DNA of 64,000 nucleotides from contig CAVZML010000006.1 of NCBI GenBank assembly GCA_963776395.1, forward strand, positions 5,312 through 69,311, written 5' to 3'. The notes beneath the pieces were generated by a model. The model was not told where the DNA came from. It did not search any database and saw only the letters and a program-made list of their open reading frames with translations. Positions 30,228 through 48,461 of the stretch are shown here, one piece after another (within the stretch, counting starts at the first letter, position 1; the number at the start of each line of letters is the position of its first letter). The position numbers and the translations under genes are program-made. This DNA comes from an uncultured Chloroflexia bacterium (GTDB taxonomy: Bacteria > Chloroflexota > Limnocylindria > Limnocylindrales > CSP1-4).

Positions 30228-30520
30228 ACTCCCCAATTGCAGTACTGCAAAAATGGCCGGGTGCGACACCAAGGTCAAACCGTTTGACCCGTCCTGCTGA
30301 GCCATCTCCTTAGGTTGAGCCACGCTGAATTGTCGATTGAGCTCACCTGAACCTGTCAACGAATCTGCCGGAAGAAGACGTTCGCCAACCCAGATCGGTA
30401 AATGCGCAAGTGATAATTGCACGTCGACGAATTCGAGGCAATAAGCGTTATCGGCCGCGACTTTGACTTTTGACTGTAGGTCGCTTCACGCGCTTCTTCA
30501 TGTAGAATGACTCCATTCTG

Positions 30521-31150
30521 GTGCGGAGTTCGGCGGCTGGCATGGCAGAGCTCAAGAAGGACTGGGTATTAAACCCAGGGGCGTTTCAGCGTCTTCTCGA
30601 ATGGCTGGACCGCGGTGGAGATTCGGCCGGACACGGGTACCTTGAAGTGCGCCGACGGCTCACGGCATATTTCGATCGAAAAAACTGTCACTCATCCGAC
30701 GAATTGGCTGACGAAACGCTCAATCGCATTGCTCGCAAACTCGAAGAAAAGGGCACTATCATTGACGTATCTCCGCTTCACTATTGCTATATCGTGGCTA
30801 AGTTTGTTTTCCTGGAAAGCTTTCGCCGCGCCAAACTTAGGGAGAACCGCACCACGGAGTTCTTGGCTTCTGATTGCCACTCCCTGGATTCCGCTGCGGC
30901 TTTCGAACTGAGCGCCGGGGACTCGAAGGAAAAGCTGTTCGGCTGCCTCGAGGAATGCTTGAATAAACTGGCGGTCGAGGATCGCGAACTCATTCTAGAG
31001 TACTATCGCGGCGGACAGCGGGTGAAGATCGAGCGGCGGTCCGAACTTGCCAATCGTCTCGGCCTCACGGCGAACGCACTCTGCATTCGGGCATGTCGCA
31101 TTCGTAACAAACTGGAGGCTTGCGTAAAAACCTGTTCGAGCAGGAAATGA
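30521..31150 (+). CDS. ECF-type sigma-70 family factor
   Basis: 209 aa with a region-4-like C-terminus (DRELILEYYRGG...ELANRLGLTANALCIRACRIRNKL) and a divergent region 2. Its stop overlaps the next start (ATGA at 31147-31150). Confidence 0.7.
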   Translation: MRSSAAGMAELKKDWVLNPGAFQRLLEWLDRGGDSAGHGYLEVRRRLTAYFDRKNCHSSDELADETLNRIARKLEEKGTIIDVSPLHYCYIVAKFVFLESFRRAKLRENRTTEFLASDCHSLDSAAAFELSAGDSKEKLFGCLEECLNKLAVEDRELILEYYRGGQRVKIERRSELANRLGLTANALCIRACRIRNKLEACVKTCSSRK

Positions 31151-32163
31151 CAGATTTTGGCGGTTTTTGTCTTATGGGAGTAGGGATGATGGGTACCGCA
31201 GACAAGCACGAAGACGATGAGCAACTTCTGACCCGTTACCTGCTCGGCGCGCTGTCCGGCGACGAGGCGCAACGCCTGGACGAACAGAGCGTAACGGACG
31301 ATGAGTTCGCATGGCGACTGGATGCGGTCGAGCATGACCTCGTGGATGCGTATGCAAATAATGAACTATCAGGCGAAACGCTGGAGCGTTTCAAGAACTT
31401 CTACCTGAGCTCTGCCAAACGATTAGGGAAGGTAGAGTTTTCGCGAACTCTGCTGCGCTTCGCCGAAAAGCCGGCTCTGGCGGACATCTCAGCCGGGGCT
31501 AAGCGAGCTACTCCGGGTTCCAGACGGCTCGACAAATCGCTGGAAGCCCGTGTTCCCGTGCGATGGTTTGGGACGCCTCACTGGGGACTGCAGATGGGGT
31601 TAGCGGGCGCGTCGCTGCTGATGCTGTTCGCCGCAGCCTTTCTGTTTGTCAAAAATGGGCGACTGCAAGAACAGATCGCCCAGGCATATAACCAGCAAAT
31701 GGCTCTGGAACAACGAGCGCACAAACTGGAAAACGAGCTTGATGAGCAACGCTCCACTGATACCAAATTGCAGACCGAACTGGAGAAATTAAGCGAATCG
31801 ACGCCGGCGGCCAGGGCACTGAAGACAATCGCCGTGCTGCTGTTGCCTCAGACACGCGGATTCAGTCAAGTTACGACCGTTTCGATTCCTCCTGCGACCG
31901 ATCGCGTCACGCTGCGACTACAACTCGAGTCCGATGATTTCCCCATATATCGGGCCGCTTTGAAGGACCCCGCAAGCGGGCACAATGTATGGAGCGGCGG
32001 CGATTTGAAAGCGAGATCGGAAGGGCAGAAGAGCGTTGTATCCCTGAGCGTGCCTGCAACCGTGTTGAAGCAACAGAATTACAGCGTAGAACTCACCGGT
32101 GTTCCCGCGCTGGGAGCTTCTGAAATTCTCAGCAGCTACGCGTTCAAGGCGGTGTTCAGGTAG
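31147..32163 (+). CDS. Single-pass anti-sigma-like membrane protein
   Basis: N-terminal LLTRYLLGALSGDEAQRLDEQ motif typical of anti-sigma N-domains. One TM helix (GLAGASLLMLFAAAFLFV), then a coiled-coil segment and a ~150-aa external beta-rich domain. Translationally coupled to the sigma gene. Confidence 0.65.
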   Translation: MTDFGGFCLMGVGMMGTADKHEDDEQLLTRYLLGALSGDEAQRLDEQSVTDDEFAWRLDAVEHDLVDAYANNELSGETLERFKNFYLSSAKRLGKVEFSRTLLRFAEKPALADISAGAKRATPGSRRLDKSLEARVPVRWFGTPHWGLQMGLAGASLLMLFAAAFLFVKNGRLQEQIAQAYNQQMALEQRAHKLENELDEQRSTDTKLQTELEKLSESTPAARALKTIAVLLLPQTRGFSQVTTVSIPPATDRVTLRLQLESDDFPIYRAALKDPASGHNVWSGGDLKARSEGQKSVVSLSVPATVLKQQNYSVELTGVPALGASEILSSYAFKAVFR

Positions 32164-32203
32164 GGTCACGAAGCGCTGCTAGCTAGTGTGCTTGGGAGGC
32201 TAC

Positions 32204-35200
32204 ATGAGGCCAAGAACGTTGCACTGCCGATCGCGAGACGTTCGTTGGGCTCTTATGTCAATCATAGCGAGCGTTTTGTTTCTCATTTGTTTGAATAGAA
32301 CTGCCGTCGCGCAAAAGACATCGCCTAATTCTGGTGAGCAAGCCACCGTCCCGAACACGCTATCGTTGCACAGGCCGATCGACCGAATCCTGAAGCCTGG
32401 CGAGCAACACAGCTATCAATTTGCCCTGGTTGCTGGGCAATACGCCAGACTGGCGGTCGAACAGCGCGGTATCGAACTTGTGCCTGAAGTTCTTGAGCCT
32501 GACCAGGGACTGCTCGCCAAATTCAATGACCAAGTGCGGCCAACAGGCGAGCAACAAGTCTTTATCGTGGCGGACACGGCCGGCAACTATACCGTGAGGA
32601 TCAAAGCGAACCTGAAAGGAATGCCTGCAGGTTCCTACTCGATTCGCGTTGATGAGATTCGCGCAGCGGGGGAGGACGACCGGGCCCTATTTGAGGCGCG
32701 CAAACTGCAGACCCAGGCATTGTCGCTGCACCAGCCGGCAAGTACGATGAGGAGCTTCCGCTCTCCGAACGTGCCGTGGCCATCACGGAAAGAGTATCCT
32801 CGGCGAGTCCAGCTTATCTGGCGGGATTGATTCGAGACCTCGGAGCGGTCTACTGGTTGAAGCAGAATCCCAAGGCAAAAGCGCTCTTCGAGCGTTCCGT
32901 CGCGATGTTTGAGCAAGCATTGGGCCCCGAGGATCCGCAAACCGCTTACACCGAGAGCTGGTTGGGAATCGTGTATCGTGTTGATGGAGACTACGACAAA
33001 GCGGAACAGATATTGCGACGTGACCTGGCAATTTTGGAGAAAGAAGTAGGCCCCAACCATCCCTGGGTTGTAAACACACTGAGGAGCCAAGGCATCCTGT
33101 ACGATGCCCGGGGAGATTTCGACAACGCAATGGAGACCACTCAGCGTGCCTTGGGTATCGCGGCGAAAACCGTGGGCGAAGAGTCCCTAGTGTATTCGCA
33201 ACTTGAGAACAACGTGGGCTTGGTCTTCCTTGAAAAGCATGAATACACACACGCTGGCCCGCACCTGGAGCGCAGCCTAGCGATACAGGAGAAACTCTTC
33301 GGGCCGAGCTATCCGCCAATCGCAATCATCCTGCAGAACCTCGGGATCGTCGCACGCGAGGCGAAAAAAGATCCTCTGGCGCACCAGTACTACGACCGCG
33401 CGCTGGCCATTCGCGTGAAAAACCTGGGCCCGGAGAGTCGCGACGTTGCCGGCACCCTGGTAAACATTGCGAATCTGTATCACTCCGAAGGCGACGACAC
33501 AAAATGCCTGCAAACTCACCTTCGTGCGCTCAAGATCGTGGAGAAACGGCAAGCCCCAGCGAGGCGTTGACGATCATTTCTCTGGTAATGTCGCGAAAAC
33601 GTATGCAGCGCTGGGTGATTTGCCGAATGCGGTTTTGTACCAAGCCAGGACCGATGCCGCCATTGAACGGGCCATCGCCGCAAACGTCATCATCGGGTCA
33701 GAGCGGCAAAAACTACTTTTTCTCCATGGCGATATCTCGAATCGGACGGACCGAACCGTCTCACTCAGCTTGCAATTGGCGCCTAAGAATCCCCAGGCGA
33801 GTTCGTTGGCCGCTTTGGTCCTTCTACAGCGCAAGGGGCGTGTGCTCGATGCGATGACCGACTCGTTCGGCAAGCTGAGGCAGCGCGCGGATGCCGGCGA
33901 TCAGGCGCTATTGGATGAATTGATGAAAACCACCACGCAACTGGCACAGTTAGTTTTATATAGCCCAGGAAAGACTCCTGCTGAGGAGCTCCAGAAACGG
34001 GTGAGAGAACTAGAGGATCGCAAAGAGGACCTGGAAGCGGAAATCAGCCGGCACAGTCTGCAATTCCGTGCGCAGTCCCAGCCCGTGACACTGGAATCAG
34101 TGCAGGCAGCGATTCCAGAGAATACGGCGCTGCTGGAATTTACGGCGTATAAGCCATTCGATCCCAAGTCGATCAGCACCAGCACTAACTACGGCGAGCC
34201 TCGCTATGCTGTCTTCGTGATTCGCAGGACCGGAGCGCCGCACGCAGTGGATCTCGGCGAGGCCAAAGCGATTCAAAAGGCATTAGAGAAGTTTCGCGAA
34301 ACCTTGCGCGATCCGCTGAACGGTGATGTGCGGGAGTCCTCACGAGAGCTGGACGCCATGCTGCTGCAGCCAGTTCGGGGTTTGCTGGGCGACGCAACAC
34401 AGTTGTTGATCTCGCCGGACGGTGACCTCAATCTCATCCCATTTCAGGCGCTGCTCGACGAACAAGGGCATTATTTGTTGCAACGTTATTCGATCGGGTA
34501 TCTGACCACCGGGCGTGACCTCTTGCGCATGCAGATCAGCCCCGCAAGCAAGAAGGCGCCGCTGGTGATGGCCGATCCGGCTTTCGGCGAGCCACAAACG
34601 ACGGAAGTTGTTCGTGCAGGGCAAACCCCACCTCTAACTGTGGCAAGCATGCGCCGCAGCGTCACGACGGCCAAAGATCTCTCCGGTGTCTATTTCGCGC
34701 CGCTCGGTGGCACGGCCATCGAGGCGCGGGCCATTCACAACTTGTTTCCAGAAGCGCAGGTCCTCACGGGACCGCAGGCAGCGAAGGATATTTTGAAACA
34801 AGTCGAAGCCCCGGGCATTCTCCACATTGCCACCCACGGTTTTTTCTTGCAGGAAGCAACCGAAGGTAAAACTTCGCCGCCGAGAACGGCTGCAACGAAA
34901 GACGCTCCTGAGAAAGAAGATCAGCCAGTTTGCGAAATCCGCTTCTTCGATCCGGCCTGGCACTGGCCGGCGCCAATGTGAACAAGACCGCAGCCGACAA
35001 TGGCATTCTCACGGCCCTAGAGGCTTCCGATCTGAACCTCTGGGGTACAAAGCTCGTCACCCTATCGGCCTGCGACACCGGAGTCGGCGAAGTGAAAAAC
35101 GGCGAGGGCGTCTACGGATTACGCCGCGCATTCATCCTGGCCGGCACCGAATCGTTGGTCATGAGCCTCTGGCCCGTCAGCGACTATGTGACGCGACAGC

Positions 35201-35364
35201 TGATGACACAGTATTACACGGGCTTGAAGAACGGCCTCGGCCGAGGCGAGGCGCTGCGGCGGGCGCAACTCGCCATGCTGAATCGCAAGGACCGGCAGCA
35301 CCCCTTTTACTGGGCCAGCTTTATCCAGGTCGGAGAATGGGCCAATCTCGAAGGCAAGCGCTGA
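32204..35364 (+). CDS. Secreted beta-sandwich/TPR/CHAT (caspase-like) protease, about 3 frameshifts
   Basis: Signal peptide (ALMSIIASVLFLICLNRTAVAQ), an N-terminal pre-peptidase-C-terminal-like domain, and TPR units (ORF 32776-33570). The CHAT domain has a His site (ILHIATHGFF, ORF 33467-34981) and a Cys site (LVTLSACDTGVG, ORF 34930-35364). Frame changes occur near 32738, 33550 and 34950. Confidence 0.75.
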
Positions 35365-35533
35365 GCGCCAAGTTCATTCAACCGAAGATCATCTCCAGCG
35401 CACTCTGCCATCTACCACTGAGCAACTCGTGCATCCTGCCGTAAAAAGCCGTCAGCCAAATGCGCGTTTTGCCCAGCGGAACCTCATTTGAAATGTTTTT
35501 GTCTTTTCGTCTTATCCCTACAAGAGCGTCCCC

Positions 35534-37162
35534 TTGGGCACTCCTTATTGTTCTGTGGCGAACGTGGTCAACGGAGGAGATGTGTCCAGATTTCAAACCC
35601 GCTATTTGCGTTGTACTTCGAGCAGGATCATCCTCGGGAAATTCGGAGTTGGCATAGTTGTGGGTCTTGTTGCCGTGCTGTTTGTTGGAGGAATCCTGGC
35701 GGTAGCTGCGGGCGGCAACCGCTTCATTCCGCGTTACGAGGAATTCCCGGATGCGGACGGCGGCCTTGCCAACCTGAATCTCGGCGGACCTACAGACACG
35801 ACCACCAATCCCTTTTTCCAGCCCATGGGCACTAACGGCCGCAGTTGTGTGACGTGCCACCAACCTAGCGACGCTTTTTCCGTTACCCCACGTCACATCC
35901 GTCAGCGCTTCGAGGCCACCCGGGGTACGGACCCGATCTTCCGCCCGGTGGACGGCGCGAACTGTCCAATGGCGGATGTTTCCACAATGGAGGAGAGGCG
36001 CGAGGCCTACAGCCTGCTGTTCAGCAGAGGGCTCATTCGCATCGGCATCGCCGTTCCGGAAAACGCGGACTACCAAGTCGTCGCCGTCTACAACCCGTAC
36101 GGATGCAATGCAACCAATGTCATTTCCATGTACCGGCGTCCGCTGCCGACCACGAATCTTCGCTTCTTGAGCGCGGTGATGTTCGACGGACGGGAATCCA
36201 CTCCGCTCACCGGCACCACCAAAATCATCTACAGCAATTATCCGGATTCGCTCATGGCCGATTTGGCGCACCAGTCGGTTGACGCCACAATCGGCCACGC
36301 ACAGGGAGACGGTACGCGGCCAACCGCGGAGGAGCAGCAGCAGATCGTGGATTTTGAAACGAAACTCTTCACCGCGCAGGTACACGACCGCCACGCCGGT
36401 AGACTTCGAGACGACGGTGCGCAGGGCGGCCCCTATTCTCTTTCTACGCAACCCTTTTTCATTACCATCAATTCAAGCGTACATTTTCTGCTTTCGGCAT
36501 TTGAGCAACCCGGCGGGTTGCTGACTCCGGGCGACGGCCAATTTACCGCGAATATTTTCAATCTTTATGGCAGTTGGGTATACACGAAGGACGACGATCA
36601 CGATCCGCGGACCACCGCACGACAATCCATCGCTCGCGGGGAGTTGCTCTTCAACACCTTGCAGATTCCCATCTCAGGTGTGGCTGGCATCAACGATGAT
36701 GTAGCGGCAGGAGGGCTCGTTGCCGGCGGCATTCCAGTGCTGCAGGGCAATTGCGCCACTTGCCACGACACGCCCAATGTCGGCAATCACTCTTTCCCCA
36801 CGCCCTTGAACATCGGCACCGGGGATCTCTCTCCGGACGACTCTTCCGTCAACCTGGGAGGTTTGGAGGTGAGTTACTTGCCGGAGATCACAGTGTGCAG
36901 GAAAGACCCCACTTCAGGCCTACCGACCAACAACTGTAAGACCACGACTGATCTCGGCCAGGCCTTGATCGATGGTAAGTTCGACCATGTTGGCAAGATT
37001 AAGGGACCGATCCTTCGCGGGCTGGCCGGGCGCGCACCCTATTTCCATAACGGCTCGGCAGCCACGTTACTGGACGCCGTCAACTTCTATGACACCCGCT
37101 TTAATCTGAACCTCAGCCAGCACGACAAAGACGACCTAGTCGCCTTTCTGAAGACTCTGTAG
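35534..37162 (+). CDS. Membrane-anchored di-haem cytochrome c peroxidase/MauG-family-like protein
   Basis: N-terminal TM helix (FGVGIVVGLVAVLFVGGILAVAA), two CxxCH motifs (CVTCHQPSDAF, CATCHDTPNVG) and the conserved GRAPYFHNGSAATLLDAVNFY region. The exact start is uncertain. Confidence 0.7.
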   Translation: MGTPYCSVANVVNGGDVSRFQTRYLRCTSSRIILGKFGVGIVVGLVAVLFVGGILAVAAGGNRFIPRYEEFPDADGGLANLNLGGPTDTTTNPFFQPMGTNGRSCVTCHQPSDAFSVTPRHIRQRFEATRGTDPIFRPVDGANCPMADVSTMEERREAYSLLFSRGLIRIGIAVPENADYQVVAVYNPYGCNATNVISMYRRPLPTTNLRFLSAVMFDGRESTPLTGTTKIIYSNYPDSLMADLAHQSVDATIGHAQGDGTRPTAEEQQQIVDFETKLFTAQVHDRHAGRLRDDGAQGGPYSLSTQPFFITINSSVHFLLSAFEQPGGLLTPGDGQFTANIFNLYGSWVYTKDDDHDPRTTARQSIARGELLFNTLQIPISGVAGINDDVAAGGLVAGGIPVLQGNCATCHDTPNVGNHSFPTPLNIGTGDLSPDDSSVNLGGLEVSYLPEITVCRKDPTSGLPTNNCKTTTDLGQALIDGKFDHVGKIKGPILRGLAGRAPYFHNGSAATLLDAVNFYDTRFNLNLSQHDKDDLVAFLKTL

Positions 37163-37168
37163 GCATAA

Positions 37169-37199
37169 GGAAACGGTACCTGCCGAACGTACAGTTTCC
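37169..37199 (+). terminator. Hairpin downstream of the peroxidase-like gene (weak terminator candidate)
   Basis: GGAAACGGTAC-ctgccgaac-GTACAGTTTCC forms an 11-bp stem with one mismatch. No U-tract follows. Confidence 0.3.
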
Positions 37200-37327
37200 A
37201 CCCACCAAGCCAATCTTGCGCGAATTAGGAGCGAAAGGTACGAACTTCTCCGGGCGCGCTTATCGAAGAAGTGGCTCTTAGTACTCGCCTCTACGAGCTC
37301 ATAATCCGCCAGCGGCAGGTTCAGAGA

Positions 37328-37353
37328 GTTGGTGCACATTTTGGTGCACACCT
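37328..37353 (+). repeat. 26-bp direct repeat, right copy (GTTGGTGCACATTTTGGTGCACACCT)
   Basis: Partner of 22996-23021. Confidence 0.7.
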
Positions 37354-37460
37354 AGGTCAAATTAGATAGCAAGTGGTAGTAATGGAACGAGCGACCTAAG
37401 TTGCTGGGATATAATGTGATAGCACAAGACGACGGTCGGCAGTAGGTGTCTGGTTTTGAA

Positions 37461-37499
37461 GTGTCAGGGTAGCGCTCTAACCAACTGAGCTACGGGCCT
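37461..37499 (-). repeat. Orphan tRNA-Val 5' half (position 1 to the anticodon loop)
   Basis: 39 nt equal to 22906-22944 apart from one mismatch in the anticodon loop (gtgtcaG versus gtgtcaA). No 3' half follows. Confidence 0.85.
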
Positions 37500-37517
37500 A
37501 TTTACACCTCTAGAATA

Positions 37518-37835
37518 TCACGCCTGCTGGCCTGAGAGAATTTCGTACACACTCTTCCACTCCGCCTCATTAGCGGGCTGCCACGCAGCTCCCAAACCAC
37601 GCACCGCGCTCTGCACTTCGGCAAAAGGCCGGTCCGCAAGCACCTTTTGCAATCTCAGCCACTCATCGCGGACATCCTGAATCTCGTCGCCGCTCGCCTC
37701 AGCCAGAAATTCTTTCACCGCTTCGCCCGCCGACTCATATTCTTCCGCAAAATCCTCATGCAGGTAGGCGGGAAAGAATTCCTGCAGCGCCGGATAATCA
37801 TTCGGATCGAATCCCTTCTTCTCTTCGTGCTTCAT
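37518..37835 (-). CDS. CDI-type immunity protein family member
   Basis: 105 aa. YPALQEFFPAYLHEDFAEEY...EFL......EIQDVRDEWLRL matches the pattern of contact-dependent-inhibition immunity proteins. Its ATG overlaps the stop of the upstream toxin gene (ATGA). Confidence 0.65.
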   Translation of the reverse strand: MKHEEKKGFDPNDYPALQEFFPAYLHEDFAEEYESAGEAVKEFLAEASGDEIQDVRDEWLRLQKVLADRPFAEVQSAVRGLGAAWQPANEAEWKSVYEILSGQQA

Positions 37836-38383
37836 CTGCCAGCCTCCGGGTATGCCGTCAGCACGTAGAAACCGTCCGGCCCATCGGCGCGCAGCACAAT
37901 CACTGCATCGGTGCACGCCTCCGCAGCGCTCTCCCCTCGCCGTAAGCTTCGGCCAATCGGCCGGGCCGCCGAATAATGCAGAGCCAGGTTCGGACGCGGA
38001 TAGCCACGCCTCATCCAACTTTCCACGCGCCCGCGTTTGTCTCGCAGCGCTTCAGCCACCGTCTCTTCTGCCGTCGCGCGATCCGTCCACGTAGACGCCG
38101 CCGAAATGTTGCGTTCGCGTTCCAGCCGCTCCGCCAGTTCTGCGTTGGTTCGCGTCACGTGGCGACTCAACGTGTGCCCGCCGCGTTGCTCGTCGCGCTC
38201 CAGATCGTAGCGATCTTTCGTACTTTTGGGTGTCGCGGCTGTTTGCGCAGGACTGCTGCTTTCGACGCCGCTGTTACCAGGCGCGGGCGCCTTTCCGCAT
38301 CCGCCCGCGTGCATGGCCGCCAAGCACAGCATCAGCGCGGCAATCGCGCTAACAATCCATCCCCGCGTGCGCTTCCCCTTCAC
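37832..38383 (-). CDS. Lipoprotein with RNase-A-like (CdiA-CT type) toxin domain
   Basis: Lipobox-like signal (LMLCLAAMHAGGC). The domain carries RGGHTLSRHV..T.AELAERL...ASTWTD.ATAEE.V, resembling bacterial RNase-A-like toxin domains. Confidence 0.55.
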   Translation of the reverse strand: MKGKRTRGWIVSAIAALMLCLAAMHAGGCGKAPAPGNSGVESSSPAQTAATPKSTKDRYDLERDEQRGGHTLSRHVTRTNAELAERLERERNISAASTWTDRATAEETVAEALRDKRGRVESWMRRGYPRPNLALHYSAARPIGRSLRRGESAAEACTDAVIVLRADGPDGFYVLTAYPEAGR

Positions 38384-38518
38384 GTTCCTAGTCCGCTCCC
38401 GTTTCTGCCTAATGCCGCCGTCATCGCATCGCCGCCTCGAGTATACGCATATCCTTCATACCCTCGCACGCCTTCCCTTGGTTGTGACCGCGCCGAACCG
38501 GATGCTATTCTCAACTTT

Positions 38519-39195
38519 ATGGCTGATCTGCAACATCCCTCTCTCGACGACGCGAGCCTCGACTCCGCCACAGCTTCACCGACGACTACGCCTTCGTCTA
38601 TCAATCACTCCGCCCGCCAGGTGGAAGCCCTCCTCGAAGTCACCGAAACCATCGCCCAACAGCGCGACCTCAAAGCTCTCTTCCACGATCTCGCTGAGCG
38701 CCTCCACGGCGTTCTCGCTTTCGACTTTCTGGCTCTGGTCCTTCACGAGCCCTCCAACAACACCATGCGCCTTCATATCCTCGAGACGCACGATCCTGTC
38801 GAGCCCAAGCCGCAAAGCGAATTTCCCGTCGACGAAGTCCCCGCAGGCTGGGTTTGGCAGCATCAGCAACCATTCGTCATTCTTGATTCCTCCAAGGACA
38901 CGCGCTATCCCGCCTTCATGCAGCGCCTGCAAGACGCCGGTGTTCATACCATGGCGATGCTCCCGCTCACCACCGCGCAGCATCGCCTCGGCGCTCTTGG
39001 TTTCGGCCGCTACATTCCTCAAGGAGTCACTGAGCCTGAGATCGACTTCATGAAGCGCGTCGCCGCTCAAGTCGCGGTCGCTGTTGACAATGCCCTCAAC
39101 TTCCAAGCCGCCGAAGCCGCGCAGAAGCGACTCTCTCGCGAACGCGACCGCTTGCAGGTTCTGCTGGAGATCAACAATCTCCTCGTCTCTCCCGC
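38519..39195 (+). pseudogene. GAF-domain N-terminus of a sigma-54 activator-like regulator, truncated at the composition break
   Basis: MADLQHPS... GAF domain (LKALFHDLAERL...LALVLHEP...LPLTTAQHRLGALGF), then the linker coiled coil (RLSRERDRLQVLLEINNLLVS). No AAA+ domain follows. Confidence 0.7.
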
Positions 39196-39467
39196 TGGAG
39201 GATGCCGGGTGGGAGGACGACGAGGACCATCCGCGAACCGCAGCCGAGCTGGTCGACGCGTTCCAGGTGACCTGGCTGGTGATCGACGACTGCCTGCGGC
39301 GCTGGACCGAGGAGGATTTTCAGGCCGAGTTCTCGCGGCCCCGGAGGCACGGTCCCGCGTCCACCCGCGCCTGGGTGCTCTGGCACGTCATCGAGCACGA
39401 GCTGCAGCACGGCACGGAGATCGCACTCATTCTTCGCAGCCACGGCCTGCCCACGCTCGACCTGTAG
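39196..39467 (+). pseudogene. DinB-family C-terminal fragment (5'-truncated)
   Basis: ...TAAELVDAFQVTWLVIDDCLRRWTEEDFQ...WVLWHVIEHELQHGTEIALILRSHG in the frame of ORF 39084-39467. There is no N-terminal half. Confidence 0.6.
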
Positions 39468-39609
39468 CAGTCCCGGGCGGCGGTCGGCCAGGCGGTCGAC
39501 CCAGACGGTCGATGATGACAGCCTCGGTAGAATCGGGGTACCGTCGGCCCCCTCGGCGAAGGACCGTGCCTACCGCCAGGGTCGACGCGAATGCACGGAG
39601 GCGTCCCAT

Positions 39610-40017
39610 ATGCTGGCCTTTGTCGTGGAGCTCAAGGACCGCCCGGGCGAGCTCGCCAAGGTGGCGGAGACGATCAGCGCGAAAGGCATCAACATCACCG
39701 GGTTCACCGGGGCGACCTGTGGCGACATGGGCTCCGTCTGCCTGATCACCAACGACGAGTCGGCGACGCGGCGGGCGCTCCAGGACGCGCACTACAAGGC
39801 TCGCGAGCGTGAGCTCGTGGTCGCGACGATCCCGGACAGGCCCGGATCGCTGGCCGACTTCGCCCGCCGGCTCGCGAATGCCGGCGTCAACATCGAGGCC
39901 GCCCTGCCGACGGGCATGAGCGGCGACGGCGTCCACGTCGCGTTCGCCACCAACGACGCGGCGAAGGCGCGCGCTGCGCTCGGCGACGCGGTCCTGAGCG
40001 GGTCCAGCACCCGCTGA
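39610..40017 (+). CDS. Tandem ACT-domain protein
   Basis: Two ACT-like units (VELKDRPGELAKVAETISAKGINI and IPDRPGSLADFARRLANAGVNI). Confidence 0.75.
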   Translation: MLAFVVELKDRPGELAKVAETISAKGINITGFTGATCGDMGSVCLITNDESATRRALQDAHYKARERELVVATIPDRPGSLADFARRLANAGVNIEAALPTGMSGDGVHVAFATNDAAKARAALGDAVLSGSSTR

Positions 40018-40198
40018 TACGGACGCTGCCGCCCGACCTCGAAGCCCCGGCGACCGCCGGGGCTTCGCCTTGTCATCCCCCGCGAACCATGGCTGGGGGT
40101 CTCACGGCACCCGGATCGCGCGACCATTGGCCCATTGCGACGACCCCGATGCCGCCCCACGCTCGGGCCCATCGGTTCAGCGATGACGAGGCGTCCCA

Positions 40199-40462
40199 AT
40201 GATCATCCCGGCGGAGCAGTATCGGAATTGCGCGACCTGCGCTCGCCCGGCGCCGGTGCGCCGGTTCGATCTCACGGTCGTGGGCGACGACGGTCACGAG
40301 CGCCACTTCTTCGGTCTCCCCGCGGCAGCGTGCCGCCCGTGCGGCAGCCTGGCCCTGGACACCGATGCGACGAAGCTGTTCCGCATCGATCCCGCCGAGA
40401 TCCTTGCCGCGATCCAGAGCGATAGCTGCCTGACCGAGGCCCGCGGCTTCGACGCGGCCTGA
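40199..40462 (+). CDS. Small hypothetical protein with two CxxC pairs
   Basis: 87 aa with CATC...CRPC, a possible zinc ribbon. Coding status is moderately uncertain in high-GC DNA. Confidence 0.4.
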   Translation: MIIPAEQYRNCATCARPAPVRRFDLTVVGDDGHERHFFGLPAAACRPCGSLALDTDATKLFRIDPAEILAAIQSDSCLTEARGFDAA

Positions 40463-40535
40463 CGCCCGGAGCGAAACGACCAGACGCCTGGCTGCGTCGC
40501 GCCCGCCGCCTCGGCGTTCGCCCGATCCCGCCTGC

Positions 40536-41402
40536 TCACGTCCCCGTTGAAGGCGCATCCTCGACCTGGGCGATCCCCGCCGTGGCCGCCCGCCGAAACC
40601 CCAGGCGCTCGTAGATCCGCGCCACGTCGTCCCCGGCCGCTGACAGGAAGACGAGATCCAGCCCGGAGGCAATCGCATCATGGACGAGCGCGCCGGTCAC
40701 CGCGGCACCGATGCCCCTCCTGCGCGCCGAAGGCAGCGTGGCCACCCCGACGACCTCGGTCACGCCGTCCACTGGCTGGTGGGCGCCTGACGCGATCGGC
40801 CCGGCCCGATCCTCTGCGACGACCAGGACGGTCGCGCCTGCGGCCAGCCGCTCCCGGAAGCGCGAGCGGTCGTGGCCCGCGGCCGCCGCGAGGTCGTCAC
40901 GCTGGACCGGTCCCGCGGGTCCGGCGGCCGTTCCCGCGTGGGCGAACGCGACGGACGCGACCGCCATGATCCGGTCGAGGTCGGGCTCGTCGGCCGGGAC
41001 ACGCCGTATCCGGACACCTGCCGGTGCCGGCGCGGCAACGACGCCGTCCAGGATGAGCAGTGGCAGCTCCAGGACGCGCATGCCCGCCGCGCGTGCCGCC
41101 GTCGACAGCGACGGCGTCGTCTCGACGACCCATTCGATGGACTCCGGCACTCCCAGCCCACGCTGCAGCTCCCGCACGGACGTGACGTCGTCCGGCTCGA
41201 TGGCTGACGCGAGTCCCAGGCAGGGACGGGCGTAGTAGGGGAATTCGCCGGTCGAGATGAACAGCGTGAAGGGCCCTGCCGCCTGGGTTCGCGCGGAGGC
41301 GCGCGGGGCGGCATCGTAGTAGCGCTCGATGCGCACGAGGCTGGACGGGGATCCGGATCCGGGCACGGCCCGGATGGTGACAGGTGCGGGGGTCCGGTGC
41401 AC
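40536..41402 (-). CDS. GNAT family N-acetyltransferase (two-domain type)
   Basis: Acetyl-CoA motif RRRGIGAAVTGALV and a C-terminal YERLGFR. Confidence 0.75.
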   Translation of the reverse strand: MHRTPAPVTIRAVPGSGSPSSLVRIERYYDAAPRASARTQAAGPFTLFISTGEFPYYARPCLGLASAIEPDDVTSVRELQRGLGVPESIEWVVETTPSLSTAARAAGMRVLELPLLILDGVVAAPAPAGVRIRRVPADEPDLDRIMAVASVAFAHAGTAAGPAGPVQRDDLAAAAGHDRSRFRERLAAGATVLVVAEDRAGPIASGAHQPVDGVTEVVGVATLPSARRRGIGAAVTGALVHDAIASGLDLVFLSAAGDDVARIYERLGFRRAATAGIAQVEDAPSTGT

Positions 41403-41487
41403 CTCGAGTCCGCTGCGGCCTTGACCCGGTGCCCACCGAACCGGGGCACGTCAGACTGCCTGTGGAACGGGATGGTAGGGTTCGCCC

Positions 41488-41997
41488 ATGAGCAGACCAT
41501 TGCTGGAAGACGCGTTCGCGCACCACGTCTGGGCGACACTGCGGCTGGTCGACGCCTGCGCGCTGCTGAGCCCGGAGCAGCTGGCCACGGGAGTCCCGGG
41601 TACCTACGGGTCGATCATCGACACCCTGCGCCACCTCGTCGGGGCCGACGCCTCGTACCTGTTCGTGCTGTCCGGCGGGCGCGTCCCCGACATCGACGAG
41701 GACGCGATGGGACTCCCGGAGCTGCGGGCCGTGATGGAGCGCAACGGCGCGGCGTGGTCCGACCTGCTCGCCGGCGACCTCGATGCCGACCAGGTCCTGG
41801 TCAGGCATCGCCCCGACGGGTCCGAGACGCACGCGCCGATCGGAATCCGGATCGCACAGGCGCTCCACCACGGAACTGATCACCGCAGCCAGGTCTGCAC
41901 CGCGCTCACGGCGCTCGGCCAGGAGCCACCGGATATCGACGTCTGGGACTTCGCCCTCCACGAAGGACGGCTCGTCCGGGTGCCGCCGCCAGCCTGA
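41488..41997 (+). CDS. DinB family protein
   Basis: HHVWATLRL...IDTLRHLVGAD...QALHHGTDHRSQ, the His triad of the DinB fold. Confidence 0.8.
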   Translation: MSRPLLEDAFAHHVWATLRLVDACALLSPEQLATGVPGTYGSIIDTLRHLVGADASYLFVLSGGRVPDIDEDAMGLPELRAVMERNGAAWSDLLAGDLDADQVLVRHRPDGSETHAPIGIRIAQALHHGTDHRSQVCTALTALGQEPPDIDVWDFALHEGRLVRVPPPA

Positions 41998-42205
41998 GGG
42001 CAGGGCGCACGCCCTTCGCCCCTCGGCGACCTGAGCCGCGGACGCCGACCAGGCGAGCCCGGGCCCAACAGGCGGACGACGTCAGGCCGCCGTAGACGCC
42101 CTGGCCTCGTCGGCGGTGCGTCCCAGCTCATTCTTGAACGTTCTGGGGTCGGCCGGTTTCATACTGGGTGAGGCAGCCAGACGGGCGGCCGGCACGGGTG
42201 CCGAG

Positions 42206-42757
42206 ATGCAGGCAGATCTCGTCGAACGAGCGCAGCGTGGTGACGCGGATGCCTTCGCGGCGCTCGCCGCGGCGTCGGTCGATCGCTCGTATGCGCTCGC
42301 GTACCGGATCCTGCGCGACCCACACCGTGCCCAGGACGCAACGCAACGGGCCTTCCTGAACGCGTGGCAGAACCTGCCGACCCTTCGGGATCGAGACCTG
42401 TTCGAGGCCTGGCTTCACCGACTCGTGGTCCGTGCCTGCTACACGGAGGCGAGGGGCGACCGTCGCTGGACCGCGCGTGTCCGCCTCATCCCGAGCGACA
42501 CGGCGACGGTGTCGGATACGGCGGTCTCCGTCGCCGACCGCGACGAGCTCGAGCGCGGTTTCCGTCGGCTGTCACCGGAGCAGCGCGCGGTCGTCGTGCT
42601 CCATCACTACATGGGATACCCGTTGACGGAGGTCGCCGCGACCCTCGACATCCCCGTCGGGACCGCCCGGTCGCGACTGCACTATGCGACCCGCCAGCTG
42701 CGGGCCGCGATCGAGGCGGACGGTCGCCCGACCGGCACCAGGGAGCGGACCGCGTGA
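42206..42757 (+). CDS. ECF sigma factor
   Basis: Region 2 (DATQRAFLNAWQNL, FEAWLHRLVVRAC) and region 4 (LSPEQRAVVVLHHYMGYPLTEVAATLDIPVGTARSRLHYA). The start was taken at MQADLV. Confidence 0.85.
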   Translation: MQADLVERAQRGDADAFAALAAASVDRSYALAYRILRDPHRAQDATQRAFLNAWQNLPTLRDRDLFEAWLHRLVVRACYTEARGDRRWTARVRLIPSDTATVSDTAVSVADRDELERGFRRLSPEQRAVVVLHHYMGYPLTEVAATLDIPVGTARSRLHYATRQLRAAIEADGRPTGTRERTA

Positions 42758-43662
42758 ACACCTCGCCGAAGTTCGAACAGCAGCTCGCCGCCTGGCTCGA
42801 GGATGGACCGGCGGACGCACCGGAAGAGACCCTCGAGAACATCCTCGCCGGCTTCCCGTCATTGCCACAACGACGGGGCGCCCTGCGCGTCCCGTGGAGG
42901 GTTGCGCCCGTGTCTGCCTTCTCCCGCAGTCTGATCGGCATCGCTGCAATCGTCGCGATCGCCGCCGGCGTCGTCTTCGTCGTCCCGAGGCTGCAACCGG
43001 GTGGCGTGGGAGGTCAGCCCTCGCCGATCCCCACGACGCCGGCGGTTGCGCCATCCCCGACCGAGGCCACATCGACGCCGTCGGCCTCGCCGGCGCCGTC
43101 AGCCTCGCCGGCGCCGTCGGCCCCGCCATCGCCTGCAGCGGAACCATCGCGGTCAGCGCCGCCATCGCCTGCAGCGAAACCATCGCCGTCGCAGGTCGCG
43201 GTCGTCTCGTCCAAGGCGTGCCTGGGGGATCATCTCACGGCCCAGGTGATGGACTGGCAGGGCGCGGCGGGCACGCGGTTCGGCACGGTCAGGCTCCGGA
43301 ACACGGGCAAGACCAGCTGCCTCGTCAGCGGGACCCCCGCCCTCCAGCTCGTCGAGGGTCACTCCCAGGTGTTCCTCGACTCGGCGAGCCTCGGGAACCC
43401 GGCCAGCGTGTCGCCCGCGACGCCGGTCTTCACGCTTCGCCCCGCCGGCGCCAGCAGCGTCTACCTCATGGCAGGGCTCACGAACTACTGCGGGGTCGAC
43501 CCAGTCTCCCTCGTCCGCCTGGCGCTGGTCCTCCCGGGGAGCCTCGGGCGCGTCGTGGCGGAGGCGGCCCCGGGTGTCGTGATCACCATGGCTCCGTGCA
43601 ATGGTCCGAGCAGCCCGACCGAGCTCCACGTGCAGGTCCCGTGGTCGACCAGGGCCCCCTGA
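42754..43662 (+). CDS. Anti-sigma-like membrane protein with Pro/Ser/Ala linker and DUF4232-like C-domain
   Basis: GTGA overlap with the sigma gene, a TM helix (IGIAAIVAIAAGVVFVV), a repetitive SPAPSA linker, and a C-terminal Cys-containing beta domain (CLGDHL...RLRNTGKTSCLVSG). Confidence 0.7.
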   Translation: MNTSPKFEQQLAAWLEDGPADAPEETLENILAGFPSLPQRRGALRVPWRVAPVSAFSRSLIGIAAIVAIAAGVVFVVPRLQPGGVGGQPSPIPTTPAVAPSPTEATSTPSASPAPSASPAPSAPPSPAAEPSRSAPPSPAAKPSPSQVAVVSSKACLGDHLTAQVMDWQGAAGTRFGTVRLRNTGKTSCLVSGTPALQLVEGHSQVFLDSASLGNPASVSPATPVFTLRPAGASSVYLMAGLTNYCGVDPVSLVRLALVLPGSLGRVVAEAAPGVVITMAPCNGPSSPTELHVQVPWSTRAP

Positions 43663-43777
43663 TGCGGAAGGCGACCAACCGGGACCGGCGCCGCGATCGC
43701 GTGGTGCCGAAAGGCCCGATGAGCGAGCCACGGGCGACCGTCCGGACCTGGCCCGGTGATTGCCGGGGCCCGCGGGG

Positions 43778-44221
43778 CTACGAGGTGTAGCGTTCGACGG
43801 CGTCGGAGATCGCCTCGAGCATCTCGGCACTCTCCCTCGCCAGGGGGACGCCCTCCAGGGCTGCCGCGAGCAGCTCCCGTCGGCGGACGGAGATCTCTGC
43901 CCAGGTGCGGCTGCCCTGGTTCGTGAGACGCACCACCACGGCCCGACGGTCGGCCGTGGTCCCGCGCTCGCTCCACAGCAGACCCCTGGCCTCCAGGCGG
44001 AAGACGATCCGGCCGATTGCCGACGCCGGCGTGTTGGCACGTCGCCCCAGCTCGGTCACGCGAAGGCCGTCGTCAGAGCTCGCCACGAGTGCCAGGACGC
44101 GGTACTGGCTGATGGTCAGCGCCCGCACCTCGGGATGGACCTCCGCGAGGGCGCGGGTCGTGATTGCCCCACTGCGCACGACGAGCCGCTCCAGCGCCGC
44201 GATCGTCTCGCTGTCTTCCAT
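43778..44221 (-). CDS. MarR family transcriptional regulator
   Basis: Winged-helix pattern (LTISQYRVLALVASSDDGLRVTELGRRANTPASAIGRIVFRLEARGLL). Confidence 0.85.
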   Translation of the reverse strand: MEDSETIAALERLVVRSGAITTRALAEVHPEVRALTISQYRVLALVASSDDGLRVTELGRRANTPASAIGRIVFRLEARGLLWSERGTTADRRAVVVRLTNQGSRTWAEISVRRRELLAAALEGVPLARESAEMLEAISDAVERYTS

Positions 44222-44336
44222 GACGCGATGTTACCGGGCGGACCCGGCGCTGGACTCAGGTAAAGACCCCACATGCTGGCGTGCCGTTCGGACCTGCTCG
44301 TGCATGCCGAAAGACATTGCAGGCCCATTTGGATCC

Positions 44337-44381
44337 AACTGTACTAAGGAAGTTGTAGTACTAACGATGTTGTAGTCGAAC
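44337..44381. promoter_or_regulatory. AT-rich repeat cluster between marR-like and signal-peptidase genes (candidate operator/promoter)
   Basis: Direct repeats GTTGTAGTACTAAC (44352-44365) and GTTGTAGTCGAAC (44369-44381), plus the inverted GTACTA...TAGTAC. The site stands out as AT-rich in ~70% GC DNA. Confidence 0.4.
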
Positions 44382-44431
44382 GGCTGCTACATGCGGCCCA
44401 TCCTGCAGCATTCCCGTTACTCGAGGCTGGC

Positions 44432-44925
44432 GTGAAAGGCCGCATCCTTACCCTCGCCTTGCTCCTGATCGGCTTCCTCGTCCTGTCGGGCGGGGTCGCC
44501 GTCCGTGTGTCGGGGCTGCGGACGCAGACGTCCTGACGGGCTCGATGGTCCCGACGGCCTCGCCAGGCGACGTCGCCGTGACCGAGCCCGTCCCGTTGTC
44601 GGCTCTCAGGGTCGGCGACGTGATCGCGTTCTACCCGCCCGGCGAGAGCATGCCCGTGCTCCACCGGATCCAGACGCTCGACGCCATCGGCGGCGTCACG
44701 TCCGTGAGCACGAAGGGCGACGCGAACCGCGTGCCGGACCCGTGGGGCGCGGTTCAGCTCCAGGGATCGACCGCCTACCGGCTCGTCGCCGTGGTCCCGT
44801 TCGTCGGCTGGCTCACCCACTACAAGGGCCTGCTGTTCATCGCAGCCGGTCTCGTGCTCGGAGCCTGGCTCCTGCAGCAGTTGAAGAGGGAGGTCCGGCT
44901 GCATCGCCCCAGCCCGGCGGCCTGA
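44432..44925 (+). CDS. SipW-type (archaeal/ER-type) signal peptidase I, one frameshift near 44530
   Basis: The N-terminal TM segment (VKGRILTLALLLIGFLVLSGG) is in one frame and stops at 44535. The catalytic part (VLTGSMVPTASPGD...HRI...KGDAN) is in ORF 44545-44925, with a C-terminal TM helix. Confidence 0.75.
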
Positions 44926-45020
44926 CGCCAACCTGCGCGTTCGCGCGTTCCCCCGAAACGAACAGTTGACGCTGTGGTTTGTTCCCGACCAGGTCATTCG
45001 ACTGAGAGGACAGATACACG

Positions 45021-45485
45021 ATGCGCAAGATCGCGGCCATGCTGGTCGCATTCGGCCTGACCCTTGGACTCCTCGGTGCTGGAATCAGCGCCACGTTCAC
45101 CGACTCCGCCACCGCGACGACGAGCATCACGGTCGGCTCGTTCAACATCGACATCAGCACGACGCAGGTCGGCGCCGTCACCGTGGATGGCTCGTCCGTC
45201 ACCTTCACGTGCCCGGACATCCTGTCGTCCGGCGCTGGCTCGTGCGCCCTCCCGTTCACGATCACGTCCACCGGCTCGATCCCGGCTGACCTGCTCGTGA
45301 CGGCCAACACGCCCGCTTCGCCGTTCTCCGACCTCCTCGCCGCTGGCGAGAAGTCGCCGAACGTGATCCACCTGACTCAAGGACAGCACCACGACTTCGC
45401 TGCTGGCCTTCAGTGGGGCGCCCTCACGAACGCGAACCTCGGGCAAGCCGTCTCGATCACCTACACGATCAACGCCGCTCAGTAA
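45021..45485 (+). CDS. TasA/camelysin-like secreted protein with SipW-cognate-type signal peptide
   Basis: MRKIAAMLVAFGLTLGLLGAGISATFTDSATATTSITVGSFNI. The extended signal peptide ending in A.F(T/S)D, followed by G(S/T)(F/L), is characteristic of SipW substrates. Confidence 0.7.
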   Translation: MRKIAAMLVAFGLTLGLLGAGISATFTDSATATTSITVGSFNIDISTTQVGAVTVDGSSVTFTCPDILSSGAGSCALPFTITSTGSIPADLLVTANTPASPFSDLLAAGEKSPNVIHLTQGQHHDFAAGLQWGALTNANLGQAVSITYTINAAQ

Positions 45486-45522
45486 GGCGCGTGCGCGAGC
45501 ACGTCCCGGAAGGGATGATCGA

Positions 45523-46716
45523 ATGAACCTCCGACAGATAGCGACCGGACTGGTCGCCGCAGGGATGACACTCGGCCTCATTGGGGCCGGTGTCGCAGCC
45601 ACCTACACCGACACGGCGACCGCGCAGGAGAACGTGACCTACGTCGGCTCCTTCGGTTGCCAGCTCGACTCGACCACCCAGGGCGCCGTCGTCTCGACGG
45701 ACCATCACACGGTCACGTTCCAGGAGCCGGACATCGCCCTCTCGGCGCCGCCGCAGGGCGGCAACGCGTTGGATCTGTCCATCACGCTGACGAACACCGG
45801 CTCGATCCCCCAGAACGTCCATTGGACGATCACCGGGCCTGACTACAACATCAGCCCCTACAACCGGCCGCCGTACAACTCCCCCAACGGGCACTTCGGC
45901 ACGTCGTCGGGCTCCCCGTCGATGCTGACCGATCTGCACAACTGGACCGGCAGCCAGACCTACACGAGCCTCGGCTTCATGTGGCTGACGCCCCTCGACA
46001 ACACCGATCTCGGTGTCACGCTGACGGCGACATACCACGTCGACTGCACCGACTACTCGCCGCCGAGCCGCCCGACCTACATCGGCGGTGCGTCGGCCTC
46101 CACGGGGACGCTCGCGACCCAGACCGTCTCGCTGCCCTCGGGCTGGCAGCCGGGCGACCTAGCGATCGGCTACACGTGGCGAGCCGCATCCACCGGCGGT
46201 GGCGCCGGGATCACCGGTTTCACGACGGTCAACTCGAACATCTTCACCAGTGGTCTGCGTCAGGCGATCCTGCAACGGACCCTGGCGGCCGGTGACTCGA
46301 CGTTCTCGACGTCGGCAACCGCCAACGTGATCATGATCGTCGTCTACCGCCACGCGGCAGTTCTGAGCAGCGCTGGTCTGTTCCTGACCACCGGCGCGAT
46401 GAGCAGCACCGCCACGGCGTTCAACTGCAACCAGCCTGCCAATGGACCGATGCCGACCGACGGCTCGGCCGTTGACGTCTGCTTCGCGGGAGACACTGCG
46501 GCCACCAACGTCAAGTCCATCGCGCCAACGGGCACGATCGGGCTGACGAACCGATCGGCCGGCTTCGCTGCGCCGAACGCCGGCATGGCCGACAGCTCGG
46601 ACACCTCCATCAACGTCTGGCCGGGTGCTGGGGTTTCGCTCAGCACGTGGACCAGCACCCCGAACAACGCCCGTGCCCACGGCACGGCCTCCGTTGGCAT
46701 CGGCTACGCCCCCTGA
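45523..46716 (+). CDS. Second, larger protein with the same signal-peptide class
   Basis: MNLRQIATGLVAAGMTLGLIGAGVAATYTDTATAQENVTYVGSF, then a ~350-aa domain of unknown function. Confidence 0.65.
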   Translation: MNLRQIATGLVAAGMTLGLIGAGVAATYTDTATAQENVTYVGSFGCQLDSTTQGAVVSTDHHTVTFQEPDIALSAPPQGGNALDLSITLTNTGSIPQNVHWTITGPDYNISPYNRPPYNSPNGHFGTSSGSPSMLTDLHNWTGSQTYTSLGFMWLTPLDNTDLGVTLTATYHVDCTDYSPPSRPTYIGGASASTGTLATQTVSLPSGWQPGDLAIGYTWRAASTGGGAGITGFTTVNSNIFTSGLRQAILQRTLAAGDSTFSTSATANVIMIVVYRHAAVLSSAGLFLTTGAMSSTATAFNCNQPANGPMPTDGSAVDVCFAGDTAATNVKSIAPTGTIGLTNRSAGFAAPNAGMADSSDTSINVWPGAGVSLSTWTSTPNNARAHGTASVGIGYAP

Positions 46717-46780
46717 GCGCAGCCCGGCGCCTATTGACCGAGGCGGCGAGCGTCCCCGCCGCCTCGACTGGGAGATCCCG

Positions 46781-47413
46781 ATGCGTCAGAGTTCCGAGAT
46801 CCTGCTCGTGGTTGGGGTGGCGTTGATCGTGTTCGCGGTCGCCACCCCGCGCGATGGCATCCTGGCGCGGGTCCTCGCCAGCGACGAGGCGCGGGCGACG
46901 TCCACGGTCACCGTCCGGTCGTTCGACGGATCTCTGTCCGACGCTGCCCCGGCGACATTGGAACCGAGTATCGAGCCTGGGGCCACGGTGGCGCCGGACC
47001 CGGCCGGATCCCCGGCACTGGCCCTCGACCCGACCACCGCGCCGACGGACAACCCCTATCCGACGGGGGCGCCCACATCCGCTCCCGGTGACACGCCGGC
47101 GCCAACAGCGGGCCTGGACCCCACACCGCAACCCCCGGCGACACCTGCGCCGCCAGCGACGGTGACGCCGTCTCCGCCGACGCCCACCGCCCTGCCCACG
47201 TCGACGCCCACGGCCGCCCCGCCCACGCCCGTACCCTCGCCGAGGCCGACCCCGACTCCCGCCCCGACCTCCACCCCCACCCCCGGCCCCACGCCGCAGC
47301 CGACGCCGGAGCCGACCCCGAGGCCGACCGCGAAGCCGAAGCACAACCCGTCCCCGACACCTGCCGCGACACCCGAGCCCACGCCCGATCCGAGCGCGTC
47401 CATCGCCCCGTAG
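46781..47413 (+). CDS. Single-pass membrane protein with a long Pro/Thr/Ala-rich tail
   Basis: TM helix (ILLVVGVALIVFAVA), then low-complexity PTPxPTP repeats. The start was taken at MRQSSE. Confidence 0.5.
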   Translation: MRQSSEILLVVGVALIVFAVATPRDGILARVLASDEARATSTVTVRSFDGSLSDAAPATLEPSIEPGATVAPDPAGSPALALDPTTAPTDNPYPTGAPTSAPGDTPAPTAGLDPTPQPPATPAPPATVTPSPPTPTALPTSTPTAAPPTPVPSPRPTPTPAPTSTPTPGPTPQPTPEPTPRPTAKPKHNPSPTPAATPEPTPDPSASIAP

Positions 47414-47476
47414 GCCACTCATCGGGGCCCGCCGTGGGATGATCCCGGGACGTTCGTCCCTACGAGAGGTGCCCGG

Positions 47477-48377: not shown

Positions 48378-48381
48378 GTGC

Positions 48382-48461
48382 GCCCGTCAGGCTCGCCGCC
48401 CGTCAGGCTCGCCGCCCGTCAGGCTCGCCGCCCGTCAGGCTCGCCGTCCGTCAGGCCTTCC
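48382..48461. repeat. Tandem repeat, 5 x 16 bp (GCCCGTCAGGCTCGCC)
   Basis: Four perfect units and one degenerate unit between convergent genes. The last units overlap the stop codon region of the MOSC gene. Confidence 0.9.

Follow-up and report, generated by a model that had tools for sequence, protein, structure and literature searches.

The stretch of DNA described here raises the question of whether a single point within it, at which two truncated genes meet and the base composition switches, is the product of a natural event or of sequence assembly. The stretch, referred to as the window, is 64,000 nucleotides of contig CAVZML010000006.1 (assembly GCA_963776395.1), recorded under the name of an uncultured Chloroflexia bacterium. 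The gene to the left of the point encodes the first part of a sigma-54-dependent, FhlA-like regulator, and the gene to the right encodes the last part of a DinB-fold protein. A preliminary description of the window had reported a composition break at this place and had preferred an assembly or concatenation chimera to a natural insertion. The present analysis comes to the same preference. The junction is most probably an artefact, an inter-phylum chimeric contig, with a probability of roughly 0.9; all of the predictions that this explanation makes at the level of the sequence were borne out, and the join lies inside one deposited contig.

Base composition of the window

The guanine-plus-cytosine (GC) content of the window was fitted with a single change-point model. 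The break was placed at 39,190, with a 2-ln-unit support interval of 39,102-39,237 and a log-likelihood gain of 756 nats. Under this model the GC content is 0.565 for bases 1-39,190 and 0.716 for bases 39,191-64,000. The composition break is real and far beyond chance. It is located at 39,190|39,191, and not at about 39,195 as was first proposed. The change in GC content, which had been called abrupt, is likewise real, but it is milder at the join itself than this word implied, rising from 0.60 to 0.70 between the 1 kb on one side of 39,190 and the 1 kb on the other. The GC content at third codon positions is 0.69 in the regulator fragment and 0.89 in the DinB fragment.

In a profile of 1-kb steps, GC content ranges over 0.53-0.62 from base 1 to base 39,000 and over 0.65-0.76 from base 39,001 to base 64,000. 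The composition changes once and stays changed. The left 39 kb and the right 25 kb are each homogeneous, with no compositional drift of either block toward the other. The same division is seen in strand-symmetric tetranucleotide frequencies of 5-kb pieces, for which the correlation is 0.72-0.89 within the left block and 0.96-0.98 within the right block. Between the two sides it is 0.56-0.76. The check by GC and tetranucleotide profiles that had been proposed for the locus consequently returned two distinct blocks.

The two truncated genes

The regulator ORF (open reading frame) starts at 38,519 with MADLQ. The GAF domain that it encodes is complete (Pfam E 6e-14) and leads into a coiled linker which ends in ...RERDRLQVLLEINNLLVS. 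Homology to known regulators ends at ...LLEINNLLVS, the S codon of which occupies 39,188-39,190, and in a protein alignment with acidobacterial FhlA-like homologues all similarity is lost right after LLVS. With the 730-aa orthologue from an acidobacterial relative (locus L003) as the tblastn query, residues 1-224 matched at 96% amino-acid identity and the match ended at 39190. Five further regulator homologues end at the same base.

Full-length relatives of the regulator are 730 aa long and contain GAF-GAF-Sigma54_activat (AAA+) with more C-terminal domains. The fragment keeps the first GAF domain and the linker, in line with the earlier account of a GAF N-terminus and linker with no AAA+ domain. 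It resembles the FhlA-type sigma-54 activators (GAF-GAF-AAA+-HTH, the last being the helix-turn-helix domain) in its orthologous N-terminus and in its neighbours, an RNase A-like toxin gene and the gene CdiI. It differs from them in the absence of the second GAF, the AAA+ Sigma54_activat and the DNA-binding HTH domains, and so the fragment cannot act as an activator. The missing half of the regulator was not found anywhere else in the 64-kb window.

The right gene is the counterpart of this truncation. The fragment matches the Pfam DinB_2 profile at positions 61-128 of 128 only, and corresponds to residues 87-179 of a 179-aa homologue, from the conserved LPLEDAGWEDD onwards. What it shares with the DinB-fold four-helix bundle is the C-terminal half, including the last helices that contain the conserved HxxxH (WHVIEHELQHGTEI). 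About 48% of the protein, the N-terminal 86 residues, is absent, and the DinB fold of the fragment is thus incomplete. The missing N-terminal part of the gene was not found in the 64-kb window. As had been noted before, the DinB half is in another frame than the regulator, the codon phases being those of 39189 and 38519, respectively. Each of the two fragments is a non-functional piece of a well-known family.

Origin of the left and right blocks

Acidobacterial relatives of the left block were reached via the neighbouring CdiI gene. This gave four loci (L002-L005) from three assemblies, comprising two contigs of ERZ25039551, one contig of ERZ25039557 and one Logan assembly (ERR15855730). Bases 1678-5900 and 37461-39190 of the window are collinear with these ENA contigs at 87-92% nucleotide identity. 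From 37,461 to 39,190 the four loci match at 89.7% nucleotide identity; all of them stop matching at 39,190 and then go on with regulator residues 225-730. In L003 these residues are encoded at 7135-8655, ahead of RidA-like and TPR genes. The order regulator, RNase A, CdiI is kept in 4/4 relatives. The GC content of these loci is 0.57-0.58, the same as that of the left block. Named homologues of the GAF protein, from metagenome-assembled genomes (MAGs), are labelled Candidatus Acidiferrum, Acidoferrales or Bryobacteraceae, and the 90% cluster of the left-block CdiI protein includes a Candidatus Acidiferrum MAG protein.

The right block has relatives of a different phylum. Its adenosylhomocysteinase, AhcY, shares 88-94% identity with proteins that bear the name Candidatus Limnocylindrales bacterium or Chloroflexi bacterium RBG_16_72_14. 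Bases 41,493-63,270 (22 kb) are collinear with L008, a Limnocylindria contig of 1.7 Mb with a GC content of 0.707. The shared gene order runs from DinB and DUF1801 through two luciferase-like oxidoreductases, an MFS transporter and a phosphoribosyltransferase to an IF-2B/MtnA-like gene, GNAT, AhcY, an S9 peptidase and MetK. The GC content of the loci of the right-side relatives is 0.71-0.72, equal to that of the right block, which indicates that no amelioration has taken place. The right block belongs to the ordinary core chromosome of a Limnocylindria-like organism and is not a mobile island, as its core genes are in synteny with the 1.7-Mb Limnocylindria contig. Pfam scans of right-block genes returned no mobility gene (integrase, transposase or conjugation gene) among those scanned.

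The proteins of the two sides are hence of Acidiferrum type on the left and of Limnocylindria type on the right. The gene content had been described as changing from Acidobacteria-like to Actinobacteria/Chloroflexi-like. The left assignment holds, as does Chloroflexota (Limnocylindria) on the right, but Actinobacteria does not.

Structure of the join

The join was located by a three-way alignment of the window with the left parents (L002-L005) and the right parents (L006 and L007). Up to 39,190, 39/40 bases are identical to the acidobacterial relatives, with random similarity beyond; the converse is true of the Chloroflexi relatives. In blastn the matches of the left relatives end at 39190 and those of the right relatives begin at 39189, where the two Chloroflexi-type DinB loci start to match at 82.8% (L006) and 73.7% (L007) identity. 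Only the dinucleotide CT fits both parents. There is no filler DNA and every base is explained. The join is seamless and essentially blunt.

No direct or inverted repeat, tRNA, att site, insertion sequence (IS) end, integrase, promoter-like site or terminator-like site was found at the join. The nearest IS is in the left block, at 17.8-19.2 kb of the window. The nearest tRNA feature is half of a tRNA-Val gene at 37,461-37,500, 1.7 kb to the left of the join. It is common to the acidobacterial relatives and is thus part of the acidobacterial context, unrelated to the join. The earlier observation that no mobile element, repeat or att site marks the junction therefore stands, with this one unrelated att-like sequence to be added.

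Hybrid reading frames and uniqueness of the join

Two hybrid ORFs result from the join. In the shorter of them, P0241, the first 33 residues are regulator DNA read out of frame and the rest is the DinB fragment. P0241 is recorded (in NCBI and ENA) on one contig of 582,003 bp, and so is each of three other proteins, namely the ACT-domain protein and a second DinB protein from the right block and CdiI from the left block. Since a gene has been called across the join on a single deposited contig, the join predates the cutting of the window and is an error of that record, made in assembly or scaffolding. The idea of a window pieced together from several records after their deposition is rejected on the same ground.

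The join has been seen once. At 90% identity, P0241 forms a cluster of its own in a set of about 15 billion proteins, and it is the sole match through the join among 1.84 billion representatives. Exact searches of the GTDB-species genome collection and the JGI metagenome contigs with the 50-mers that flank the join gave no match. An independent genome with this junction, which would have spoken for a natural origin, was accordingly not found. Both hybrid ORFs are by-products of the join, without function.

Explanations for the join

Under the favoured explanation, assembly of a mixed (probably soil) metagenome would have joined Acidiferrum-like acidobacterial sequence to Limnocylindria-like Chloroflexi sequence, and the chimeric contig would then have been deposited as one 582-kb record. 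No cell would ever have carried the joined molecule. The hallmarks of a chimeric contig are present, namely one sharp composition switch, unrelated lineages which are each collinear to the break, and a junction that does not recur in independent assemblies. As in other inter-genome chimeric metagenome contigs, the switch in composition and in taxonomy is single and sharp within one contig, genes are truncated there, no mobility signature is seen and the junction is unique to one assembly. GUNC is a tool aimed at contigs of this kind. The present case differs in that many such chimeras arise at shared sequence (rRNA, IS or a conserved gene); here the parents share 2 nt only, and this makes a chimeric read or a blunt join a better fit than a repeat-induced error.

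The assembler is the probable source of the chimera; a chimeric long read, or a false link in its graph, would have bridged two low-coverage contig ends. The parents have no repeat in common that could have misled an overlap or k-mer assembler. This lack argues against a repeat-induced misjoin, and fits a chimeric read and a concatenation equally. A join made by the assembler is preferred over concatenation for several reasons. The record is treated as one contig, and the left and right relatives alike are found in ENA assemblies whose accessions are neighbours and whose records have 'contig_N' names. A link of these accessions to the Microflora Danica long-read project is conjectural. Single-base indels in the left block break a conserved selenium-binding-protein gene; these indels and the 'contig_N' names are compatible with long-read assembly. 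Chimeras are, in addition, a documented error class of long-read metagenome assemblers, found recurrently in published evaluations (PMC13543314).

Some considerations weigh against an artefact. The artefact is inferred from the sequence alone. Natural illegitimate recombination also gives seamless joins, with 0-3 nt of microhomology. Different phyla which have no repeat in common are rarely joined by long-read assemblers. Real fine structure in the left block has been assembled correctly, one example being the 8-bp target duplication of an ISL3 insertion.

A different artefact is also conceivable, although it is unlikely. Two separately assembled contigs, each ending mid-gene, may have been set end to end without an N spacer. 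This could have come about during scaffolding, through an error in the handling of files, or when a mis-binned genome was written out as a single sequence. A blunt join with no shared k-mer or repeat is in keeping with such an event and is unlike the normal output of an overlap or de Bruijn assembler. The positions at which the two genes are cut are arbitrary, as those of contig ends are, and the 64-kb window contains no N. The treatment of the 582,003-bp record as one contig, however, speaks against concatenation, and common long-read pipelines do not string contigs together; in the one described in PMC12313526, the contigs of Flye are binned and not joined. Moreover, the 64 kb show only one compositional break and no second blunt join between truncated genes, and the other odd structures of the left block carry biological signatures.

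A real and very recent transfer between phyla is highly improbable. At least 25 kb of unameliorated Limnocylindria core chromosome, with ahcY and metK, would have entered an Acidiferrum-like chromosome, or the reverse. The transfer would have proceeded by microhomology-mediated illegitimate recombination without a mobile element, destroying both the regulator and the DinB gene. The 2-nt microhomology and the seamless join fit non-homologous recombination. Both lineages are present in samples of apparently one sequencing project, as judged from the neighbouring ENA assembly accessions, which makes contact between them plausible. The tRNA-Val 1.7 kb away has received many insertions and makes the left block a recombination hot spot. 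Nevertheless, the block that would have moved is non-mobile core chromosome (ahcY, metK and the mtnA-like gene) syntenic with Limnocylindria, and no integrase, transposase, conjugation gene or att site accompanies it. Its GC content differs by 15 points with zero amelioration, and about 15 billion proteins yield a single contig with the junction. The sequence of the recipient does not resume within 24.8 kb, the far border being outside the window. Inter-phylum chimeras, on the other hand, are a documented assembly error (PMC13543314).

The comparison with horizontally acquired genomic islands leads in the same direction. The locus is like them in its abrupt change of composition and in the tRNA-associated insertion hot spot nearby in the left block. 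It is unlike them in several respects. Mobility genes were not found at or near the border, and neither were a border tRNA, an att site or direct repeats. The far border is unseen within the window, the cargo is the syntenic core chromosome of another phylum, and the GC content is above, not below, that of the putative host.

As for a natural fusion of the two genes into a new GAF-DinB two-domain protein, it may be said in its favour that one ORF crosses the join in each of two frames, but its chance is negligible and it is rejected as a functional protein on its reading frames: the regulator frame yields non-homologous Arg/Pro/Gly-rich sequence past LLVS, the DinB frame reads out-of-frame regulator DNA before LPLEDAGW, the DinB fragment is without the first half of its fold, and no protein holds both domains as the two parts are in different frames.

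Features of the two blocks

The features at and around the join are listed in Table 1.

Table 1. Positions in the window of the join, the two blocks and the adjoining genes.
Feature	Position	Strand	Basis and remarks
Left block, Acidobacteriota (Candidatus Acidiferrum-like) chromosomal DNA	1..39190		Change-point, tetranucleotides, collinearity, taxon labels
Right block, Chloroflexota (Limnocylindria-like) core chromosomal DNA	39191..64000		Change-point, AhcY identity, L008 collinearity
Last intact left-block genes: CdiA-CT-type RNase A-like toxin and CdiI immunity gene (37518-37835)	37518..38392	-	Pfam RNAse_A_bac, CdiI_2
5′ fragment, sigma-54-dependent FhlA-like regulator, residues 1-224/730	38519..39190	+	Pfam GAF; tblastn
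Regulator-frame read-through into GC-rich block	38519..39745	+	ORF list; Arg/Pro/Gly/Ala-rich, no homology past LLVS, stop at 39745
Hybrid ORF P0241, 125 aa	39090..39467	+	100% match in library of predicted proteins from public assemblies
Junction dinucleotide CT	39189..39190	+	Three-way nucleotide alignment; breakpoint between 39188 and 39191
3′ fragment, DinB_2/DinB-fold gene	39189..39467	+	Pfam DinB_2; homologues P0242-P0244; stop codon included
First intact right-block gene: ACT-domain pair protein P0391	39610..40017	+	Pfam ACT

The last intact genes before the join encode a toxin and its immunity protein. The toxin is a stand-alone RNase A-like protein with a lipoprotein-like signal at its N-terminus and without the large CdiA body. 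Its gene has a 4-nt overlap with the CdiI_2 gene.

Further to the left, the block is marked by repeated pieces of a tRNA-Val gene. The intact tRNA-Val(GAC) is at 22,868-22,944 on the minus strand. Downstream of it are four direct copies of its 3′ part, from the anticodon loop to CCA, at 1389-1434, 6008-6060, 9661-9714 and 19203-19256; these are 46-54 nt long and 94-100% identical. Upstream is the copy of the 5′ half already mentioned, which is 40 nt long with 1 mismatch. All of the copies break in the anticodon loop. In L003 the intact tRNA is directly between CdiI and an AraC-type gene, and in the window those two genes are 31.5 kb apart. The arrangement resembles a series of insertions, in tandem, at the anticodon loop of tRNA-Val, one of which has, unusually, duplicated the 5′ half.

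One of the relatives shares part of this arrangement. Bases 10336-10509 of L002 (ERZ25039551 contig_29089) correspond to bases 37327-37500 of the window and hold the same tRNA-Val 5′ half together with 134 nt of the adjoining element. Beyond those 134 nt, L002 has different cargo (DUF2085, TIR_2, DNA ligase and Big_2). This suggests an element family with variable cargo that uses the tRNA-Val site. No integrase was found among 20 larger ORFs scanned in the segments between tRNA fragments, in a scan that was not exhaustive.

A 3.7-kb segment is present twice in the left block, at 5995-9714 and 19191-22912, with 97.9% identity between the copies. Each copy is bounded by tRNA-Val 3′ fragments and contains a Zn-dependent dehydrogenase gene, a DUF4440/SnoaL-like gene and two unknown ORFs. 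Ahead of the second copy lies an ISL3-family element (about 17838-19190) with imperfect terminal inverted repeats of ~24 nt and an 8-bp target duplication, GTTCTTTC. The coding sequence of the ISL3 transposase is split over two overlapping frames, suggestive of a frameshift.

The tRNA-Val fragments and the 3.7-kb duplication were considered as further assembly joins. This is unsupported, as one relative shares the boundary between the tRNA half and the element, and the ISL3 element has its inverted repeats and 8-bp duplication. The tRNA-Val and ISL3 features are genuine and unrelated to the chimeric join.

The selenium-binding-protein (SBP56) gene at 2318-3736 on the minus strand is out of frame for ~140 codons and has two stops, as a result of several 1-nt indels. 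It is intact in the relative L003. Either the gene has become a pseudogene or the indels are consensus errors of long-read assembly. Further left-block genes, at 14574-15815, 16343-17597 and 33464-35364, look truncated or frameshifted. An ORF for a PAS/HAMP/HisKA kinase ends without the ATPase domain. Matches to a second sigma-54 activator are divided between two frames, at 16664-16939 and 16839-17573. An ORF with a CHAT domain stops at profile position 159/289, and the next ORF is in another frame.

The first intact gene of the right block, that of P0391, has an exact copy recorded on the 582,003-bp deposited contig. The next relative is 89% identical and is on a contig of 1.24 Mb (L001). The stretch that L001 has in common with the window is only ~1 kb (39506-40464 of the window and 9899-10891 of L001), and consists of the ACT gene and an ORF for an 87-aa Cys-rich protein. 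L001, the closest ACT relative, has no DinB gene upstream of ACT, and the native sequence to the left of the break is therefore not revealed by it. Upstream of the pair in L001 is an M48 peptidase gene, with rapZ-whiA-tpiA-secG further upstream. Downstream are a response-regulator/ParA-like gene and then rpsF-ssb-rpsR. The ACT gene and the Cys-rich ORF seem to move as a small unit within Limnocylindria genomes.

Elsewhere in the right block, at 57492-59960, a GNAT acetyltransferase and the adenosylhomocysteinase are encoded in one unbroken reading frame. A GNAT-AhcY protein of 676 aa is on record elsewhere (P0204), and in L008 the two are separate genes with a 4-nt overlap. GC-rich tandem repeats are present at 43076-43190, 48381-48456 and 51982-52107. 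They include an 18/36-nt array in the Pro/Ser/Ala-rich part of the ORF that follows an ECF sigma factor; the others have a 16-nt unit repeated 4.8 times at 98% identity and a 23-nt unit repeated 5.7 times.

Significance of the join

The locus is a case in which alignment of relatives of both parents pins a chimeric join to within 2 nt from its sequence alone. Its practical value is modest and is that of a quality flag on a public record. The 582-kb NCBI/ENA contig appears to fuse two phyla, and bins, taxonomic placement, pangenomes and screens for horizontal gene transfer that use the contig inherit false gene content and a false inter-phylum transfer. The hybrid "protein" P0241 is already a cluster representative in a collection made from public assemblies. 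The biological significance of the junction is probably nil. If the join were real, it would represent an extraordinary large-scale transfer of core genes between phyla without a vector.

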